Shown piece after piece: positions 32,820 to 42,184 of a stretch of DNA of 64,000 nucleotides (positions are counted from its first letter, which is position 1; the number at the start of each line of letters is the position of its first letter). The notes under the pieces were generated by a model. That model saw only the letters and a program-made list of their open reading frames with translations. It was not told the origin of the DNA and ran no database searches. The stretch lies in the NCBI GenBank assembly GCA_947165235.1, contig CAMUZN010000001.1, positions 170,242 to 234,241 of the forward strand, written 5' to 3'. The DNA is from an uncultured Mycoplasmataceae bacterium. Lineage in GTDB: Bacteria > Bacillota_I > Bacilli_A > Mycoplasmatales > Mycoplasmoidaceae. The position numbers and the translations under genes were made by a program.

Positions 32820-33213
32820 GGGAGTGTAAAGATTCGACATTGTATTTTTGGTTTAAGTTGCAGTGGGGTTTGCCCCTTATCGCTAAGGCACAAATACGTG
32901 CAGAACAAGATCAAGCTAAGTGAAATGAAACAGCTTTCGTTTCACCACAAGGTCAAAATAAATATTATTTCGCAAGTCTTGCTTAATTAATATTTAACAG
33001 TCATTGGTGTTTTATCACTTAACACTAGTGATTTAAAATTAAGTGATATATCTAATTGATGCTAATAAATTGGATGAAAATAATTAGCTATTTTGGTATC
33101 GTGTTTGTTTTAATACACAAGAATACCAATGAAGCTTAAAATTAAAACTAAACTGTAGATGCTTAAATTCGAAAACCCAATGGAAGTGAGTGCGATTCTC
33201 ACCACTTCCACCA
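32820..33213 (+). ncRNA. ssrA: Transfer-messenger RNA
   Basis: The 5' end GGGAGUGUAAAGAUUCGAC pairs with the 3' CACUUCC-ACCA, including a G3.U pair. A T-arm GUGAG-UGCGAUU-CUCAC is present. An internal tag frame ends ...NKYYFASLA-UAA. Confidence 0.9.
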
Positions 33214-33240
33214 TTAAACGAACATATTCATATATGTTTT

Positions 33241-33330
33241 GGAAATGTACTCAAGTGGTTAAGAGGGCACACTGCTAACGTGTTAGATCAAGTAATTGGT
33301 GCGTGGGTTCGAATCCCACCATTTCCGCCA
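33241..33330 (+). tRNA. tRNA-Ser (anticodon GCU), CCA encoded
   Basis: Acceptor GGAAATG/CATTTCC, anticodon loop CU-GCU-AA, a long variable arm, and T-arm GTGGG-TTCGAAT-CCCAC. Ends GCCA. Confidence 0.9.
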
Positions 33331-34314: not shown

Positions 34315-34967
34315 AAATTATTAAAAAATTATATTTTTTTATTCACAAAACTATTTGAAAGATGCAAGTGATTTTAAACTATTTTAAAAATGAATAATTA
34401 ATATTTTTTAATCTTTTAAATCAAAGGTGTATCAAGGCCATAATAACATTATGATCAATGAAAAGTTTAAAAATATACTAATACTAAAATGGTTAAAATT
34501 ACTCCCCATCATTTATTAACGGTTGGTATTAGCTTTCATCTAATTTAATATAGATCAAGGATCTTGATAATTATCAAAATACTGTTAATAATGAAACTAT
34601 AGTTAGATGACAAATATAGGGAATTTAATTGAGAAATTCAAATTATAAAATGATAACTATTTTTAAAAAAAGAATTCATGAATTAAATGAAAAAATACAT
34701 TGCATTAAAAATGAATATGATGAATTGAAAAATTTAATATACAATTTGTGGGATTATTTTATGAAATTATTTTAGAACAAAAGTTCGAATTCGTCCAAAT
34801 AATAAATGTCACTCCAATTATCATCTAAATACAATAACTTATTATTTATTGACTACACAAGTAATCACCATTTATTTCGATCAAAATTTTTATTAATTTA
34901 TTTCACAAAGTATTAAGTAAAAAATTTATTTTTTTTTTTACGAGTAAAATTATTAAAATACACCATT

Positions 34968-37900
34968 ATGAATGATTTAAACAACCAGCAAAAAAAACAT
35001 GTTAACATTGGTTTAGATATTGGTACAACCTCTGTTGGTTGAGCTATTATTGATAATGACTACAATGTCATTGATTATGGAGTGAGATTGTTTACTGATC
35101 CTTGTGAAGAAAAAACTGGACACCCAAAAAACGAACAACGACGAGAAAAACGATGCCAACGAAGAATGCTTCGTAGAAGAAAACATCGTAAAGAACGTTT
35201 CATTCAATTAATTTTAAAAAATAAAGATATATTTTCTTTTAATAAAAAGGAAGAAATAATGGCGGTATTGGAACATGAAATTGAATTGCCTTGAGATGTA
35301 AAAGTTAGAGGTTTACAATCACAACTACCAAAAGAAAAATTAATCTATATTCTTTATCATTATTTATCTCATCGTGGTTTTACCTATTTAGAAGATAGTG
35401 ATCAAGAAAGTAATAAAGATAATGATCAAGTTGAGTTGGGTTATATACCAGATCAAATAAAAAAAATAACGAACGGTGAAAAAGAATTTAATAATTTATC
35501 ATTTCCTTCACAAAAGCAATGTTTTGCTTTTAAGATATTAAAATATCAAGACTCTAAATTAAATCGGTCTTTTTCAATGCAAAATTGGGAAAAGGAAATC
35601 GAAAAAATTTTGTCTAATCAAACATATTTATCTCATGATTTTAAAACTAAATATCTTGATTTATTTTCTACATATCGAGATTATAGTATTGGTCCTGGTT
35701 CTGAAAAATCGCCGAGTTCTTATGGGTTATATACCAAAGTATATGATACTAAGTCACAAAAATATATTGTTAAATGTAAAGGAAATAATTTGTGAGATTG
35801 TCTAGTTGGTAAATGTAGTTATTTTGATGGTTCGGATGGTAACAAACCAGAACAAAGAATTGAAATTAATTCCGCATCAGCTACTATTTTTAACTTATTA
35901 AATGATTTGCAAAATTTGCGAAAAATTTCAAATAGAGAATGAAGAATTTCTAAAAATGAAAAAAAGTTAATTTTTAGTTCTTTATTTGAAAAGGCAGGTG
36001 AATTGACAATAAAAAAATTGTCTACTATTTTTAAATGTGATCCTGATGATATTGATGGTTATCGTACAAGTGGTAAAAAAGGTAAAGGCAAAAAAAATAA
36101 ACCCATTTTTACAGAAGTAAAAAGTATAAAAATTGCATTGAATTTTTTGAAAATTCCAGTAAAGAATTTCGTTGAATCACTATGACAAAAAAATTTTAGT
36201 TACATTAATAAAATTAATTGCTTAATACATTTAAAGTCAACTTTCAAGAATCCGGAAAAATTGTATGCTGAATTTATAAAAATATTTCATGATTTAAATA
36301 CCAATTACGGTTTTAAAACTGGTGTGGAAATACATTCAAATAAAAATTTTAGTGATATAAAATCTTCTAAAAAGTATTCTGCATATTCACAAAAAGCTTT
36401 GAATGAAATATTTATTCCAAAATTACTTGATGATGAATTAGGGAATAATTCTGAATGTATTCGTCATGAATTTAACAAATACAATCCACAAAATATAAAA
36501 ATTAATTCCAAAACAATAAATATTGATTCTCTTAAAATTAATGAAAATATTTTTTCACCTACTGTTGTTCGATCAGTTCGGCAAACATTTAAAGTGATAA
36601 ATGCGATTTTAAAATCAAAAAAATATTCGAATTGTATTTTTGATTATTTATCGCTTGAAATGTGCCGAGATAAAAATACAAAAGAAGCACGAGATAGAAT
36701 TTATAATAACCAATCATTAGATGAGGCACAAAATAAAGAAATACAAGAATATACAAATAATTTAGAAATTTCAAACACAATTAAATTAAAAATTCTTCTT
36801 GCAAAATCGCAAGATTGATTTGATCCATATGATTTAAAGGAAATAGAAAAACCAAAACCTAACTCCAAAGATGATTTAATAAAATGGAGCGGGAAATATG
36901 AAATTGATCATATAATTCCTTCTAAATATTTTCATGATAATTCACGTTCAAATAAAGTTTTAACATCACATGAAAATAATTTTGAAAAAGCCAAAAGAAC
37001 CCCGTATGAATGATTAGGGAGCAAATCAAATTGAAGCGATTTAGTTGTAAATTTTAAACCGAGAAAATTTATTAATGGTGAATGAATTTTAGATAAAGAA
37101 AAAATAAAAAATTTTCAATTAACAGATGTTGGTACAGATATTTCAATCCAAATGAATCCACGGAAACTAGTCGATACACGATACACAACCAAATTTGTTT
37201 ATGATAATCTTAGAAATTTTTTTAATAACAATTCTTTCTATGATGTAAATAGACCAAAAATTTTTACGATAAACGGGGCGGTTACTAGTTATTTCCGCAA
37301 TAAATTTTGTAGTGATAAAGAATACAACTTTAAAGAATTTAAGAAAGATCGTGATAATTTCGAGCATCATGCAATAGACGCAATTATTGTCGCATTATTT
37401 TCGATATTACCACTGGAATTCGTCAATTTATTTAGAAAATTAAGTTCATTAAGTCAACAACCAAAGCAATTAGGTCTTACAAAGGAGCAAGAGGAAATTA
37501 AAGGCATTTATAAACATATTATTGATAAAAAATTATTACTTAATAAACAATTTGATCATTTAAAAATAAAAAAGATTGTTGAATGAATTAATAATAATAA
37601 GCCGAAATTTTCACGTATGCTAGAAACCCATAATAATATTGAATTTTTTAATGAATCAAATTATTCATATTCTTTAGATATAAACAATAATGTTATTACT
37701 AAAGAAAAAATTTCTATTTTTGATGATGGGAAAGTTAAGGATATTTTTTATTTATTTGATGATCAAGCTAAACGAAAAGAATCTTTTACAAATGCAAAAT
37801 GTTTACTAAATACTGAAACTATGGAATATTTAAAGCAAATTTATATTGATGGTAAATCTCAAAATAAAATTAATCCTTTTAAAGGGTATATGGAAAGGGA

Positions 37901-38432
37901 ATATGGTGATAAAAATCCATCTTATCTTAAATTTAATTTAAATGGTGTTGAAAATAAGATTAAAAATATATCCTTTGCTTTTTTTACAGATAAAGGAATA
38001 AATAATTATTTTGTCAATAAAAAAATTGGTTGTATTAATACTTCGTTTAAATCAGTTGCTATTGATTGTTATTTTAAGGATAGTAAATGGTTTGTAGTTC
38101 CTTTAAATGTCGAAACATACGATTTTAATAGAAAGAAGAAAAAGGACGGTTATTTCACCATGTTGCAAAAGATGAATTTAAATCCCAATAATTTTAAATT
38201 TCAAATAAAAAAAGGCCAAACTTTTATTGATAATAATGGGGATCTTTTTTATTATGTAAGTTATTCATATGTGAATAAAACTATTGAAATAAAGCCAATC
38301 GACCATGTTTATAAGGCAAAAAATGGGAAAAGTACTATTCAGTTATTAAAAACAATTAATCAATTTTTTAAAAATTTTAAAATTTGCGATCTTGATATAT
38401 TAGGTAACAAATATTTAAGAAAAGATATATAA
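34968..38432 (+). CDS. cas9: Type II-A CRISPR-associated endonuclease Cas9 (1154 aa)
   Basis: Seven track fragments (35082.., 35436.., 36003.., 36261.., 37152.., 37617..38432) share one frame with the ATG at 34968, and I read every gap and found only TGA. Motifs present: RuvC-I IGLDIGTTSVGWAII; Arg-rich bridge helix RREKRCQRRMLRRRKHRKERF; RuvC-II LSLEMCRD; HNH YEIDHIIPSKYFHDNSRSNKVLT; RuvC-III HHAIDAIIVA. Confidence 0.95.
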
Positions 38433-38433
38433 T
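38428..38433 (+). promoter_or_regulatory. -10 box (TATAAT) for tracrRNA, overlapping the cas9 stop codon
   Basis: TATAAT at 38428..38433. A G at 38441 lies 8 nt downstream, where the tracrRNA 5' hairpin begins. Confidence 0.35.
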
Positions 38434-38440
38434 AATAAAT

Positions 38441-38561
38441 GTTAATCGTAAGATTAACAGGCAACAACAATGTAATACTGCACCGGGATAAGGCTTTATG
38501 CCGTAACCGGTTGAGTAAAATCAACCTAAGATACTATAACCATTTGGTTATAGTATTTTTT
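38441..38561 (+). ncRNA. tracrRNA
   Basis: Anti-repeat 38452..38489 (GATTAACAGGCAACAACAATGTAATACTGCACCGGGAT) is complementary, with G.U pairs, to the CRISPR repeat. It is followed by the nexus-like AAGGCTTTATGCCG, hairpin GGTTGA-GTAAAA-TCAACC, and an 11-bp terminator hairpin (38531..38556) plus TTTTT. The 5' end is not mapped. Confidence 0.85.
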
Positions 38562-40526: not shown

Positions 40527-40691
40527 GTTCTGGTGTGGTATTATATTGTTGTTGCCTAACCTCCGCTGTTTCTCCATTTATACCGGTGTTGGTTCTGGTG
40601 TGGTATTATATTGTTGTTGCCTAACCTTGTTTAGTTGGGGGTTCATTGCTTCCATTGTTCTGGTGTGGTATTATATTGTTGTTGCCTAACC
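40527..40691 (+). CRISPR. CRISPR array: 3 identical 35-nt repeats, 2 spacers of 30 nt
   Basis: The repeat GTTCTGGTGTGGTATTATATTGTTGTTGCCTAACC occurs at 40527..40561, 40592..40626 and 40657..40691. Spacers are TCCGCTGTTTCTCCATTTATACCGGTGTTG (40562..40591) and TTGTTTAGTTGGGGGTTCATTGCTTCCATT (40627..40656). Transcription sense (+) is inferred from the tracrRNA orientation. Confidence 0.95.
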
Positions 40692-41015
40692 AAAACTTTA
40701 TCGTAAATTTCTAAACAATATTCCATCTTGTATATCGAGCATTGTATAATAAACTAACAAAAAGTTGGAAGCAGGATATGGTAATTATTTTGTGAATAGT
40801 GATGGAGATTATTCATCTTATCATATTATTTGCGATGTAATTTTTCGGAAGATAAATAATTATAAAATCGATATTTTATATTATTTTATGCTCTTTTTGT
40901 AAATTTGCACTTTCATTAGTATAGAGTATATCGTTGATTATCGTTATGATTAAAATCAATATATTTGTATTAATTTAACATAAATATTTAAGAGATTGTT
41001 ATGATATAATTTAAC

Positions 41016-41102
41016 AAAAGTGTTATAATAATCTTGGTGTGGTATTATATTGTTGTTGTTTATTTTTTAGAACTTTTAAAAATATAAAAGTGTTATAATA
41101 AT
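41016..41102 (+). repeat. 17-nt perfect direct repeat AAAAGTGTTATAATAAT (41016..41032 and 41086..41102)
   Basis: Read directly from the sequence. The copies are 70 nt apart. The first copy abuts and overlaps the start of the degenerate CRISPR repeat. Confidence 0.9.
41031..41065 (+). repeat. Solo degenerate CRISPR repeat (same orientation as array)
   Basis: ATCTTGGTGTGGTATTATATTGTTGTTG matches repeat positions 1-28 at 25/28. Positions 29-35 read TTTATTT instead of CCTAACC. It lies 339 nt after the last perfect repeat. Confidence 0.85.
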
Positions 41103-41125
41103 AAAAAATATGTTATAATTATTTT

Positions 41126-41150
41126 GTGACTAATATAAATCATTAGTCAC
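41126..41150. other. Perfect 9-bp hairpin GTGACTAAT-N7-ATTAGTCAC
   Basis: The inverted repeat was read directly. There is no adjacent T-tract on either strand. Confidence 0.7.
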
Positions 41151-41154
41151 TGTA

Positions 41155-41232
41155 GTGGAGGATTTGAACCACGAAACTGCAAAGAGCAACTGATTTACAG
41201 TCAGTGTGCTTTGGTTACTTGAGTACATTTCC
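41155..41232 (-). pseudogene. tRNA-like remnant (chimeric: first 16 nt identical to tRNA-Ser, Tyr-type GUA anticodon arm, defective D/T/acceptor stems)
   Basis: The minus strand reads GGAAATGTACTCAAGT-AACCAAAGCAC-ACTGA-CTGTAAA-TCAGT-TGCTCTTTGCAGT..GTGGTTCAAATCCTCCAC. The anticodon stem-loop is perfect and a GGTTCAAATCC T-loop motif is present. No 3' acceptor strand (CATTTCC) exists, and the D and T stems do not close. Confidence 0.55.
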
Positions 41233-41269
41233 AAAACATATATGAATATGTTTGTTTAATGATGGAAGT
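41217..41269 (-). repeat. 53-nt inverted copy (51/53) of the ssrA 3' end / spacer / tRNA-Ser 5' junction at 33204..33256
   Basis: The reverse complement of 41217..41269 is ACTTCCATCATTAAACAAACATATTCATATATGTTTTGGAAATGTACTCAAGT. Positions 33204..33256 read ACTTCCACCATTAAACGAACATATTCATATATGTTTTGGAAATGTACTCAAGT. Confidence 0.9.
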
Positions 41270-41295
41270 AGAAAAGTAAATGCAAGTCCACATTA

Positions 41296-41345
41296 CAAAA
41301 AATCCAAATGATAAATTTTATTATTTTACCATTTGGATTTTTTTA
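41296..41345 (+). terminator. Intrinsic terminator (potentially bidirectional) before fpg
   Basis: Stem ATCCAAATG (41302..41310) / CATTTGGAT (41330..41338), extended by the flanking A-run and T-run. It is followed by a T-tract at 41339..41344. Confidence 0.6.
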
Positions 41346-41356
41346 TAAAATAAAAT

Positions 41357-42184
41357 ATGCCAGAATTTCCGGAAGTTAAAACATTAGTTAATTGACTAAA
41401 TCACCAAGATTTCTTTAGTATAAAGATAAATAAAATTATTTTTATTGATGCTATTGTTTTAAAAAATTCGACAAAAAAGCAATTTATTGACTTTGTTTGC
41501 AATGAAACAATTAAAAAAATTAGTCAAATAGGTAAATTTATAATCTTTTATTTATCAAATGGAAAAATTATTACAATCCATTTACGCTTGGAAGGTAAAA
41601 TTTTTTACTTATCAGCTAATGAAAAAAGTAAATTTCCGCTAGTTGAATTTTACTTGGATAATGACAAAAAAATTGTTTACGACGATTCACGTAAATTTGG
41701 AACAATTAATATTTATGATAATTACCAAAAATTATTGGATTCTAGTGAAATAAAGAAATTGGGCAAACAACCATTTGATCAAGCATTAACAGCTAATTAC
41801 TTGCTTAATTGCTTTAAAAATAAGAACCAAAAAATTAAGACAACTTTGCTTGATCAAACTATCATTGCCGGAATCGGTAATATTTATGCCGATGAAACAT
41901 TATTTTTATGTAAGATTTCACCTTTTCGGAAAGCAAAAGATGTTTCTCTAGATGAATGCCAACAAATTATTAATAATTGTCGTAAAATTATGGCACAATC
42001 AATTAAAAATAAAGGAACGACAGTTTTTTCATACCAATATGCTCTAAATCATTCCGGTTCATTCCAAAAATATCTTAAAGTCTATGGGAGAAAAAACTTA
42101 TCTTGTTTGCGATGTGGAAGCACCCTTTGTTGAACAAAAATAAATGGAAGAGGAACAACATATTGTAAGAAATGTCAAAAGTAA
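41357..42184 (+). CDS. mutM: Formamidopyrimidine-DNA glycosylase
   Basis: N-terminal MPEFPEV (catalytic Pro2/Glu3), H2TH region, and C-terminal zinc finger CLRCGSTLCW..TTYCKKCQ. Length is 275 aa after reading two TGAs as Trp. Confidence 0.9.

Follow-up and report, generated by a model that had tools for sequence, protein, structure and literature searches.

Known CRISPR-guarding RNA toxin-antitoxin pairs belong to Cascade and Cas12a systems, and in Cas9 systems scaRNA and tracr-L are known only for regulating virulence genes or cas9 itself. The question raised by the present locus is whether a type II-A system could guard an RNA toxin as well. Within the window, i.e., the whole stretch of 64,000 nucleotides that was analysed, which comes from an uncultured mycoplasma-like bacterium, a block of ~430 bases lies between the CRISPR-Cas9 array and fpg. 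It was the initial annotation that proposed a Cas9-guarded antisense unit in this place, and the sequence features that it listed were all recovered at their coordinates. The anatomy is collected in Table 1; the block resembles what a CRISPR-guarded toxin might be in a Cas9 system.

Table 1. Positions of the block, its parts and its partner sites (numbering of the window).
Feature	Position	Strand	Remarks
Strain-specific block	40910..41338 (edges approximate)	.	homology to L004 fades after ~40910 and is back from 41339
Block junction sequence, example			GTCACTGTAGTGGAGGATTTGAACC
P0, putative extended -10 box TGATATAAT	41002..41010	+	start predicted at ~41016-41018 from the usual 6-8 nt spacing
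Guide-like 15-mer AAAAGTGTTATAATA	41016..41030	+	abuts the solo repeat on its 5' side; contains P1
P1, putative promoter box TGTTATAAT	41021..41029	+	inside the guide; promoter-like site 41001-41029 with TG, 10/12
Solo degenerate CRISPR repeat	41031..41066	+	positions 1-31 pair with the tracrRNA anti-repeat; 3' end diverged, runs into TTTATTTTTT
Putative Cas9 binding site (protospacer-like)	41086..41100	+	identical to the guide; overlaps the P2 -10 box and the expected P3 -35 region
P2, putative promoter box TGTTATAAT	41091..41099	+	-10 box overlapped by the putative Cas9 site
Putative PAM-side sequence ATAAAAAA	41101..41108	+	ATCTTGGT at the equivalent place of the guide's own locus
P3, putative promoter box TGTTATAAT	41111..41119	+	start predicted at ~41126, the first base of the 5' hairpin
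Perfect 9-bp hairpin	41126..41150	+	7-nt loop, -8.6 kcal/mol, z -5.6; the unit RNA would begin here
Antisense of putative decayed class-II-like tRNA remnant	41151..41216	+	minus strand: GTA anticodon-arm-like stem-loop, T-loop motif
Antisense copy of the tmRNA-3'/spacer/tRNA-Ser-5' junction	41217..41269	+	51/53, inverted pair I1
Intrinsic terminator	41296..41345	+	A-run, 14+4 bp stem, TTTTTTT; bidirectional in shape; in the strain-specific block
Predicted trans target	33204..33256	+	junction of the real tmRNA (32820-33213) and tRNA-Ser(GCU) (33241-33330)
tracrRNA anti-repeat	38459..38489	+	partner of canonical and solo repeats (inverted pair I10); followed by nexus-like and terminator hairpins, to ~38566

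The solo repeat stands 338 nt, including a conserved small ORF, beyond the last regular repeat. It is 78% identical to the canonical repeat (family D1), with an identical 24-nt core and the identity starting at 41035, and at GGTATTATATT it carries T instead of C, as is particular to the repeats of this strain. Pairing with the anti-repeat extends over 31 of 31 positions, the five changes being all transitions and all pairing-preserving, and beyond the paired part the repeat diverges completely. The duplex was calculated at -43.0 kcal/mol, compared with -48.4 kcal/mol for the canonical repeat and -13 ± 3 kcal/mol for shuffles. The solo repeat thus shows what defines a scaRNA, a repeat-like segment complementary to the anti-repeat with a guide on its 5' side, and also the crRNA-like, degenerate repeat inside or next to a CRISPR-cas locus that marks a CreTA antitoxin gene. 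We infer a crRNA-like RNA gene at the CRISPR locus whose product loads Cas9. The terminal repeat of type II-A arrays is usually conserved at the 5' part and decayed at the 3' end, which counts for a left-behind terminal repeat; the solo repeat has this form and sits at the trailer end, and L007/L008 have a degenerate terminal repeat too. The solo repeat differs from such a repeat in the intervening 338 nt with their conserved ORF and in the promoter-like sequence that precedes it in place of a spacer.

The 15-nt guide is matched 55 nt downstream on the same strand, starting precisely from the edge of the repeat and in the orientation that a type II crRNA needs. Chance does not account for this match: its length was reached by 0 of 2000 shuffles, and 561 mock anchors placed in the real region gave at most 14. 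A comparable cis match is lacking for every other repeat of the window and of eight related loci, and the 17-mer shared by the two sites occurs nowhere else in the 64 kb. The match with the guide ends at 15 nt (1/5 identity in the next 5 nt upstream), within the range of about 11-15 bp of the truncated or partial guides of scaRNAs. Guides truncated to 13-15 nt are known to give binding without cleavage. An eroded self-targeting spacer was dismissed, as the PAM-distal 15 nt are at random level (6/15) and the proximal 15-17 nt are perfect; a simple 70-nt tandem duplication was dismissed as well, the 17-mer alone being in common. In search of the PAM, two spacers of the window, one of L007 and five of L010, eight in all, were compared with IMG/VR, JGI metagenomes and GenBank phages, and no usable protospacer came out. 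The three matches obtained (L092, L093 and L094) are confined to the 20-nt query, the other 10 nt agreeing at 2/10 positions, and in databases of this size they are chance matches. The cas9 upstream region (34315-34967), where the guides of Cas9-regulating scaRNAs and tracr-L match the promoter or 5' UTR, has no match to the 17-mer with ≤3 mismatches and no 11-nt seed match with ≤1 mismatch.

Of the five TGNTATAAT boxes in the 64-kb window, four are at 41002-41119 on the + strand. TGTTATAAT is not enriched in the whole window (4 found, 3.7 expected), three of the four copies being within 120 nt on one strand. Nor do sites of the generic sigma-70-like type exceed expectation in the region (8 found, 11.6 expected). 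The initial annotation had reported P2 and P3; both are present, and P1 is a third copy, with P0 upstream of it. Promoters and start sites are predictions from sequence alone. P0 would start an RNA at the first base of the guide and would thereby give a native guide of 13-15 nt. The next-best match to the 17-mer is the tracrRNA promoter AAAAGATATATAATAAT.

No convincing terminator was found between the array, the small ORF, P1 and the unit. Since this barrier is missing and the guide DNA doubles as the putative promoter P1, synthesis of the antisense RNA is expected even with Cas9 bound, and the earlier caveat on read-through from the array is reinforced. Moreover, a Cas9 guide paired to the template strand blocks elongation poorly in CRISPRi, and at the putative site the guide would pair with the template strand. 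Taken together, P1, read-through and template-strand pairing argue that some antisense RNA is constitutive, and this weakens the reading as a strong toxin.

A transcription unit of ~220-240 nt would extend from the predicted promoters P2/P3 over the 5' hairpin and the antisense body to the terminator. The perfect hairpin was found as described initially, and the terminator, which had been called strong, is on par with that of the real tRNA-Ser (-15.2 kcal/mol, z -5.3, vs. -13.2 kcal/mol); the stability of the 5' hairpin was rated equal to that of a genuine local terminator as well. The unit terminator consists of a stable stem-loop followed by a U-run, as expected of an intrinsic terminator, and was missed by a rule-based scan because of its 9-nt loop. 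The claim that the + strand of the unit has mini-ORFs only was borne out. An additional 22-aa frame (41280-41348) runs through the terminator and is not credible, and of the two 32-aa frames on the minus strand neither is credible-looking. The proposed tRNA-like remnant was confirmed in part: an anticodon-arm-like ACTGA/CTGTAAA/TCAGT and the T-loop motif GGTTCAAATCC are present, and the resemblance to the rest of tRNA-Ser is weak (z 2.6). A tRNA as such was not recovered, since ARAGORN found none on the minus strand at default or relaxed settings, with a poor fold only at the 70% threshold, and Rfam gave no tRNA match at E ≤ 10.

The body also holds the inverted 53-nt copy, whose complementarity to the tmRNA/tRNA-Ser junction is exactly as first claimed (51/53). 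The predicted target begins with the terminal 10 nt of tmRNA, CCA included (the Rfam model ends at 33213), and continues with a 27-nt spacer and nt 1-16 of tRNA-Ser(GCU). As RNA, the duplex has 51 Watson-Crick pairs, 1 G-U and 1 A-C, and was calculated at -76 kcal/mol with opening costs of about 16.5 kcal/mol and about 17-18 kcal/mol, so that the energetics would allow antisense pairing. In mature tmRNA and tRNA-Ser the ends of the target are buried in the acceptor stems, and the spacer is offered by the precursor only. The edges of the copy are sharp (identity 2/10 in both flanks), and the chance expectation for the 53-mer, as for the repeat core, is zero. It matches this strain's own fast-evolving spacer, the L002 junction being only 85% identical; judged by this match, the copy is young and comes from the strain's own sequence, and its near-identity may come from youth and not from selection. 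An inversion of the pta-cas segment with staggered breaks was dismissed, as both ends are oriented alike in the relatives, which lack the copy.

None of the six related array-to-fpg intervals compared contains the block, and that of the closest relative L004, with an identical Cas2 and 96% Fpg identity, is among them; over L004-L010, where the block is missing, Fpg is 81-96% identical. Due to this absence, conservation or covariation lends it no support. The interval is hypervariable and differs in every relative sampled: the array directly adjoins fpg in L010, the gap is 140 nt in L005/L006, two minus-strand ORFs are present in L007/L008 and other small ORFs in L004. ORFs of 197 aa and 150 aa were translated from L007. 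Old decayed repeats are stranded close to fpg in L007 and L009, which indicates that array tails have repeatedly been split. Small hydrophobic ORFs of toxin-like character are found in the trailers of this strain and of L004. The Cas9 locus L095, from farther away in the Mycoplasmoidaceae, has an array of 38 repeats that ends beside a toxin-like gene. Among the GTDB species genomes, no match was obtained in a Cas9 scan and nothing closer than 45% identity in an Fpg-profile scan. By its sequence, the block is a young mosaic, specific to this strain, that was inserted where the type II-A CRISPR array has its hypervariable tail.

CreTA was described as CRISPR-repressed toxin-antitoxin RNA pairs in the type I-B system of Haloarcula hispanica and later in types I-F and V-A. 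The block shares with it an ectopic degenerate repeat with a short pseudo-spacer beside the CRISPR locus, a match of the pseudo-spacer to the promoter, here a putative one, of a neighbouring small ncRNA, a toxin, here a proposed one, directed at the pool of translation RNAs (in CreT by sequestering a tRNA) and a patchy distribution. In contrast to CreTA, the effector would be Cas9 with tracrRNA (type II-A) and not Cascade or Cas12a, one repeat is 3' of the guide instead of two flanking it, and a 53-bp antisense duplex with the tmRNA/tRNA precursor is proposed in place of rare-codon/tRNA sequestration on ribosomes. P1 and read-through, which argue for leaky expression, are a further difference. 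Recurrence in related CRISPR-cas loci would be expected of a CreTA module, and the present module is absent from L004-L010. The initial annotation regarded a type II CreTA as undescribed, and none was found in the literature searched or in a 2025 review (PMC12737573).

The guide-plus-repeat mimic that pairs with tracrRNA recalls scaRNA, which can also sit downstream of the array, and so does the partial guide, with which Cas9 binding and repression without cutting are predicted here. In Francisella novicida (II-B), Cas9 with scaRNA represses an uncut target at an 11-bp match (PMC12231574). Cas9-regulating scaRNAs of II-A/II-C loci have truncated guides and are located downstream of arrays, and both scaRNA and tracr-L are co-opted by phages (bioRxiv 10.64898/2026.06.01.729453). 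Unlike in these cases, the predicted target here is not a virulence gene, and not the promoter of cas9 either, but the adjacent promoter of an antisense ncRNA in the same inserted block, and the element is not conserved in relatives. With tracr-L, the natural single guide of Streptococcus pyogenes II-A, Cas9 represses a promoter in its own locus through an 11-nt match (as summarised in PMC10120712). The likeness is that a short match would reprogram Cas9 to repress a promoter within its own locus. The difference is that the guide would belong to a crRNA-like RNA of its own instead of being fused to tracrRNA, with a target other than Pcas.

The following scheme can be put forward. Transcription from P0 would produce a 13-15-nt guide with the repeat core, still fully tracrRNA-pairing, which amounts to a scaRNA/CreA-like gene. 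This crRNA-like RNA would pair with tracrRNA and load Cas9, and Cas9 would bind 41086-41100 without cutting because the match is only 15 bp. The bound Cas9 would occlude the P2 -10 box and the P3 -35 region and keep the antisense RNA low. Upon loss or inhibition of Cas9 or tracrRNA, the promoters would become active, and the unit RNA would form the 53-bp duplex with the co-transcribed tmRNA/tRNA-Ser precursor, masking the RNase P site of tRNA-Ser and the 3' end of tmRNA. The outcome might be harmful, as CreTA-like addiction or an abortive response, or merely regulatory. That a scaRNA/CreA-like RNA lets Cas9 bind, uncut, the promoter of an antisense ncRNA, whose toxicity we infer, is our tentative preference and falls somewhat short of probable. 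The fuller claim is unlikely, namely that the block is the first Cas9 (type II-A) counterpart of CreTA, in which a tracrRNA-dependent RNA with a 13-15-nt guide parks Cas9 on an RNA toxin's promoter, the 53-bp duplex formed by this toxin blocks, in a new mode of action, the maturation of two essential translation RNAs from their tmRNA/tRNA-Ser(GCU) precursor, and loss of Cas9 or tracrRNA or inhibition by an anti-CRISPR leads to cell arrest. With respect to the Cas9-guarded unit as first proposed, the anatomy is real and stronger than noted (31/31 pairing, 15-nt match at P2, and P0), whereas the absence of the block from the closest relatives and the leaky expression predicted from P1 and the missing terminator count against the guarding.

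The same parts could also be a functionless rearrangement scar, debris of a recombination hot spot made up of a left-behind terminal repeat, promoter-like AT-rich 9-17-mers that were duplicated locally, the decayed remains of a tRNA-like sequence and the 53-nt inverted piece as a recent arrival. Any + strand RNA would then be read-through stopped by the terminator before fpg. This is a real possibility, if on the doubtful side. It agrees with an interval that is different in every sampled relative, with the decayed repeats near fpg in L007 and L009, with the closest strain without the block, with the 5'-conserved, 3'-decayed form of terminal type II-A repeats and with the youth and local origin of the 53-nt copy, and the same AT-rich DNA holds one more exact match of 17 nt as well as a direct repeat of 14 nt. 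Nevertheless, the scar leaves unexplained the exact guide position and right orientation of the 17-mer copy, the placement of P0 for a start at the guide's first base, the clustering of four of the five TGNTATAAT boxes and the 5' hairpin and terminator of native quality that frame the debris, and no mutational mechanism is evident for a sharp-edged 53-nt inverted insertion.

That P1, P2 and P3 are near-identical and strong-looking, and that the tracrRNA promoter comes next in similarity, which suggests a shared promoter type, would suit a constitutive trans-antisense small RNA without Cas9 control. Such an RNA would tune the processing or levels of the tmRNA/tRNA-Ser precursor or be merely tolerated, the guide-promoter identity being a by-product of one promoter cassette re-used for two RNAs. 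The constitutive expression predicted from P1 and read-through and the favourable duplex energy point in this direction too. Since the block is missing from close relatives it is not a conserved regulator, and the intact tracr pairing of the solo repeat would be of no use to it; we consider this explanation quite improbable. A mobile-element remnant is very improbable. In one form, P1 would give a guide-less repeat RNA (start ~41036) that titrates tracrRNA/Cas9 as an RNA anti-CRISPR or viral scaRNA-like RNA; the canonical-repeat identity begins at 41035, right at the predicted P1 start, and phages do co-opt scaRNA and tracr-L, but the solo repeat has the strain's own variant and the similarity of the block to phage and plasmid records is at chance level. 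In the other form, the inverted tmRNA/tRNA piece would be an att leftover. The genes of tmRNA and tRNA are classic integration sites, and the att duplications of genomic islands likewise leave a partial second copy some kb from the intact gene. An att site of an integrative element was dismissed, however: the repeat is inverted, not direct, and reaches from the tmRNA 3' end over the spacer into the 5' end of the tRNA, where an att duplication would cover the 3' end of a gene. Only pta and cas genes and no integrase lie between the arms, and in the relatives the gene order is identical although the copy is missing.

If the Cas9-guarded reading is true, addiction and anti-anti-CRISPR logic would be extended to type II systems, antisense pairing to the tmRNA/tRNA-Ser precursor would be a new RNA-toxin mechanism, and minimal-genome Mollicutes would possess a compact natural kill switch. 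Even if the block is functionless, the tail of this small type II-A array is a hot spot for stranded repeats, small toxin-like genes and RNA-gene fragments.

The 36-nt degenerate CRISPR repeat that lies beyond the array (solo repeat, see the table) has a 24-nt core identical to that of the array repeats and pairs with the tracrRNA anti-repeat at 31 of 31 positions, the same as the canonical repeat. The duplex is worth −43.0 kcal/mol; the canonical repeat gives −48.4 and shuffled sequences −13 ± 3. All five differences from the canonical repeat in the paired part keep the pairing, because they are transitions facing G or U, and directly beyond the paired part the divergence is complete. A second copy of the 15 nt abutting the repeat on its 5′ side, the guide position in type II systems, lies on the same strand; its PAM-side flank is A-rich, and it overlaps the −10 box of predicted promoter P2 as well as the −35 region expected for predicted P3. 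Among 2000 dinucleotide shuffles the longest anchored match was 13, against 15 here; mock anchors across the real region gave 14 at most, and no comparable cis match was found at other repeats of the window and eight related loci.

The sequence TGNTATAAT occurs five times on both strands of the 64-kb window, and four of these occurrences are P0 to P3. With the usual spacing of 6–8 nt, transcription from predicted P0 (TGATATAAT) would start at 41016–41018; this putative start falls where the matched 15-mer begins and would yield a native guide of 13–15 nt. From predicted P3 the start would fall at about 41126, where the 9-bp hairpin begins. No PAM could be derived, since searches with the spacers returned chance 20-mers alone. 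The region upstream of cas9 (34315–34967), an unusually long non-coding gap of about 650 nt after the PTA_PTB-family gene, gave no crRNA-like guide match. Elsewhere in the window, the 17-mer AAAAGTGTTATAATAAT is matched best, with 3 mismatches, by the tracrRNA promoter region AAAAGATATATAATAAT (38420–38436), which is also followed by ATAAA; this points either to a promoter type common to both or to a weak secondary guide site with a 7-nt seed only. The predicted tracrRNA 5′ end (38441–38458) forms a self-contained hairpin, GTTAATC-GTAA-GATTAAC, immediately before the anti-repeat.

Positions of features in the window and, for related strains, in their own contigs
Feature	Position	Strand	Remark
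gyrA, gyrB		−	upstream side of gene order
tmRNA	32820-33213	+	
tRNA-Ser(GCU)	33241-33330	+	
PTA_PTB-family gene		−	between tRNA-Ser and cas9
cas9	34968-38432		
tracrRNA	38459-38489 (anti-repeat)		after cas9
cas1, cas2, csn2			between tracrRNA and array
CRISPR array	40527-40692		three repeats
Last repeat-to-fpg interval, window	40693-41356		array end to fpg (~40693-41356), 665 nt non-coding
ORF MVIILWIVMEIIHLIILFAM	40778-40840	+	20 aa, table 4
Predicted P0	41002-41010	+	
Guide	41016-41030	+	
Predicted P1	41021-41029	+	
Solo repeat	41031-41066		
Guide match	41086-41100	+	
Predicted P2	41091-41099	+	
Predicted P3	41111-41119	+	
9-bp hairpin	41126-41150		
53-nt antisense copy	41217-41269		reverse complement of 33204-33256
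Terminator	41296-41345		
fpg	41357-42184		
Last repeat-to-fpg interval, L004	1424-2078		
Same, L005	1-171		L005/L006: repeat, then 140 nt to fpg; no block
Same, L007	6774-8583		L007/L008: degenerate terminal repeat, two minus-strand ORFs, old decayed repeat near fpg; no block
Same, L009	1-485		resembles L007/L008; no block
Same, L010	364-421		array end 60 nt upstream of fpg; no block

The initial annotation had described a compact antisense RNA unit downstream of the guide match, and all its elements were found in place: the TGTTATAAT boxes (P2 and P3), the hairpin (−8.6 kcal/mol, z −5.6), the antisense copy (51/53 identical) and a strong terminator (−15.2 kcal/mol, then seven T) on par in quality with the native tRNA-Ser terminator. 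The copied stretch runs from the final 10 nt of tmRNA through the 27-nt spacer into tRNA-Ser (nt 1–16). The computed RNA duplex has 51 Watson–Crick pairs, one G-U and one A-C, and its −76 kcal/mol stands against a combined opening cost of about 34 kcal/mol, which makes a duplex with the tmRNA/tRNA-Ser precursor feasible on thermodynamic grounds. Folding of the full 251 nt is far better than that of shuffles (z −5.8 and −6.5 on the two strands), mostly owing to the two hairpins, and the stretch has no credible ORF under table 4, as had been proposed. For the supposed tRNA-like remnant the case is weak: anticodon-arm-like and T-loop-like motifs are present, but ARAGORN and Rfam searches gave no tRNA call, and similarity to the rest of tRNA-Ser is marginal (z 2.6). 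At the tRNA-side edge of the copy (41205–41216 vs 33257–33275), TAACCA stands in place of its reverse complement, the TGGTTA of tRNA-Ser, and beyond it GCACACTG is again common to both; possibly a small hairpin-mediated inversion took place here, or the remnant arose in a more complex way. A 14-nt direct repeat, TAATTATTTTGTGA, is found both where the hydrophobic trailer ORF begins (40782–40795) and at the P3-to-hairpin junction (41116–41129); the copies do not pair, as they share orientation, and may reflect chance or local duplication.

With 26% G+C and TGA read as Trp, the window is Mollicutes-like; its proteins have their nearest named relatives among uncultured Mycoplasmoidaceae MAGs, and no Fpg above 45% identity was found among GTDB species genomes. 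Contigs of close relatives were found via Cas9 and Fpg homologues. In the closest, L004, Cas2 is identical, Fpg 96% identical, and the csn2-end/leader and fpg-start DNA 97–98% identical. In the trailer, homology (about 68% identity) stops near 40910 and restarts at 41339, 18 nt upstream of the fpg start codon; the L004 DNA between these points, some 420 nt in place of the block, is unrelated and contains other small ORFs. The block was absent from all relatives examined (L004–L010), and their intervals differ, therefore the interval is hypervariable and the block, with solo repeat, promoters, antisense body and terminator as one set, is specific to this strain lineage. Every related strain sampled differs in what lies between the last repeat and fpg and in how long this interval is (60 nt to 1.8 kb), with flanks 81–98% identical; the interval acts like a hot spot of recombination or insertion that has the repeat and fpg as its anchors. 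In L007 (8475–8510) and L009 (379–414) an old, heavily decayed repeat (GTTCTGATATAGCATTATATTGATT...) is found on the far side of inserted DNA, downstream of it and some 75 nt before fpg, which indicates that insertions split array tails more than once.

The hydrophobic trailer ORF MVIILWIVMEIIHLIILFAM is preceded by TATAAT (40745–40750) and a purine-rich stretch before its ATG. L004 encodes a counterpart conserved as a peptide, MIDLIFCWLVMEAIHIILLFAI, in DNA only about 68% identical, and a second hydrophobic ORF, MTVIAGWLIIVGITLWFSIILS (pair at 1506–1574 and 1743–1811); these look like type I toxin-like peptides beside the array. In L095 (9963–11903, −), from a distant Mycoplasmoidaceae MAG, a Pertussis_S1/CARDS-toxin-like gene adjoins the end of a 38-repeat type II array.

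We tentatively favour, at somewhat less than an even chance, the reading that a scaRNA/CreA-like RNA would park Cas9 on P2/P3 of an antisense ncRNA. The main rival, a functionless mosaic scar within the hot spot, is quite possible too. The block's parts stem from the strain's own genome: the antisense copy matches the strain's own fast-evolving tmRNA–tRNA spacer (only 85% identical to the junction of related L002), so its high identity may reflect youth alone, and the solo repeat carries this strain's T at a position that is C in the other six repeat-bearing related loci (T in the decayed L009 copy). Debris would, however, not readily account for the combination of a tracr-competent solo repeat, a guide set at the repeat boundary that matches a cis promoter, a promoter placed to yield exactly that guide and a hairpin-to-terminator unit downstream, hence our preference for a Cas9-parking RNA. 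A mobile-element or decoy remnant is very improbable; no similarity to the block was found in phage and plasmid collections.

The proposal of a Cas9-guarded toxic antisense RNA fared unevenly: the pairing and the anchored match strengthen its guide logic, while predicted leakiness partly disfavours toxin and addiction. The guide DNA is itself a predicted promoter copy (P1, flagged by a promoter scan), no convincing terminator was found between array, trailer ORF or P1 and the unit, and a guide on the match would pair with the template strand, where CRISPRi blocks elongation poorly. Some antisense RNA is thus expected despite Cas9, which weakens the reading of the unit RNA as a putative toxin. 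A constitutive antisense regulator is improbable, and full CreTA-like addiction unlikely.

The layout resembles CreTA in having an ectopic repeat whose pseudo-spacer matches the promoter of an adjoining ncRNA. With toxicity and addiction predicted only, a putative PAM, and no recurrence found in the relatives, CreTA membership cannot be claimed; CreTA, CreR and CrePA are confined to type I and V-A systems in a 2025 review (PMC12737573). In mechanism the element would resemble scaRNA, with tracrRNA dependence and a truncated guide, and sequence-level scaRNA features are present; the Cas9-regulating subclass differs in targeting the cas9 promoter, upstream of which no match was found here. An 11-bp match suffices for Cas9 repression without cleavage by scaRNA (PMC12231574) and by tracr-L (PMC10120712). 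Truncated-guide scaRNAs downstream of arrays, aimed at the cas9 promoter, were recently reported (bioRxiv 10.64898/2026.06.01.729453). In a survey of repeat-like elements, about 6% of type II loci had non-tracr mini-arrays, without a target of the kind seen here (PMC10120712). If functional, the unit would possibly be the first Cas9-guarded RNA module.
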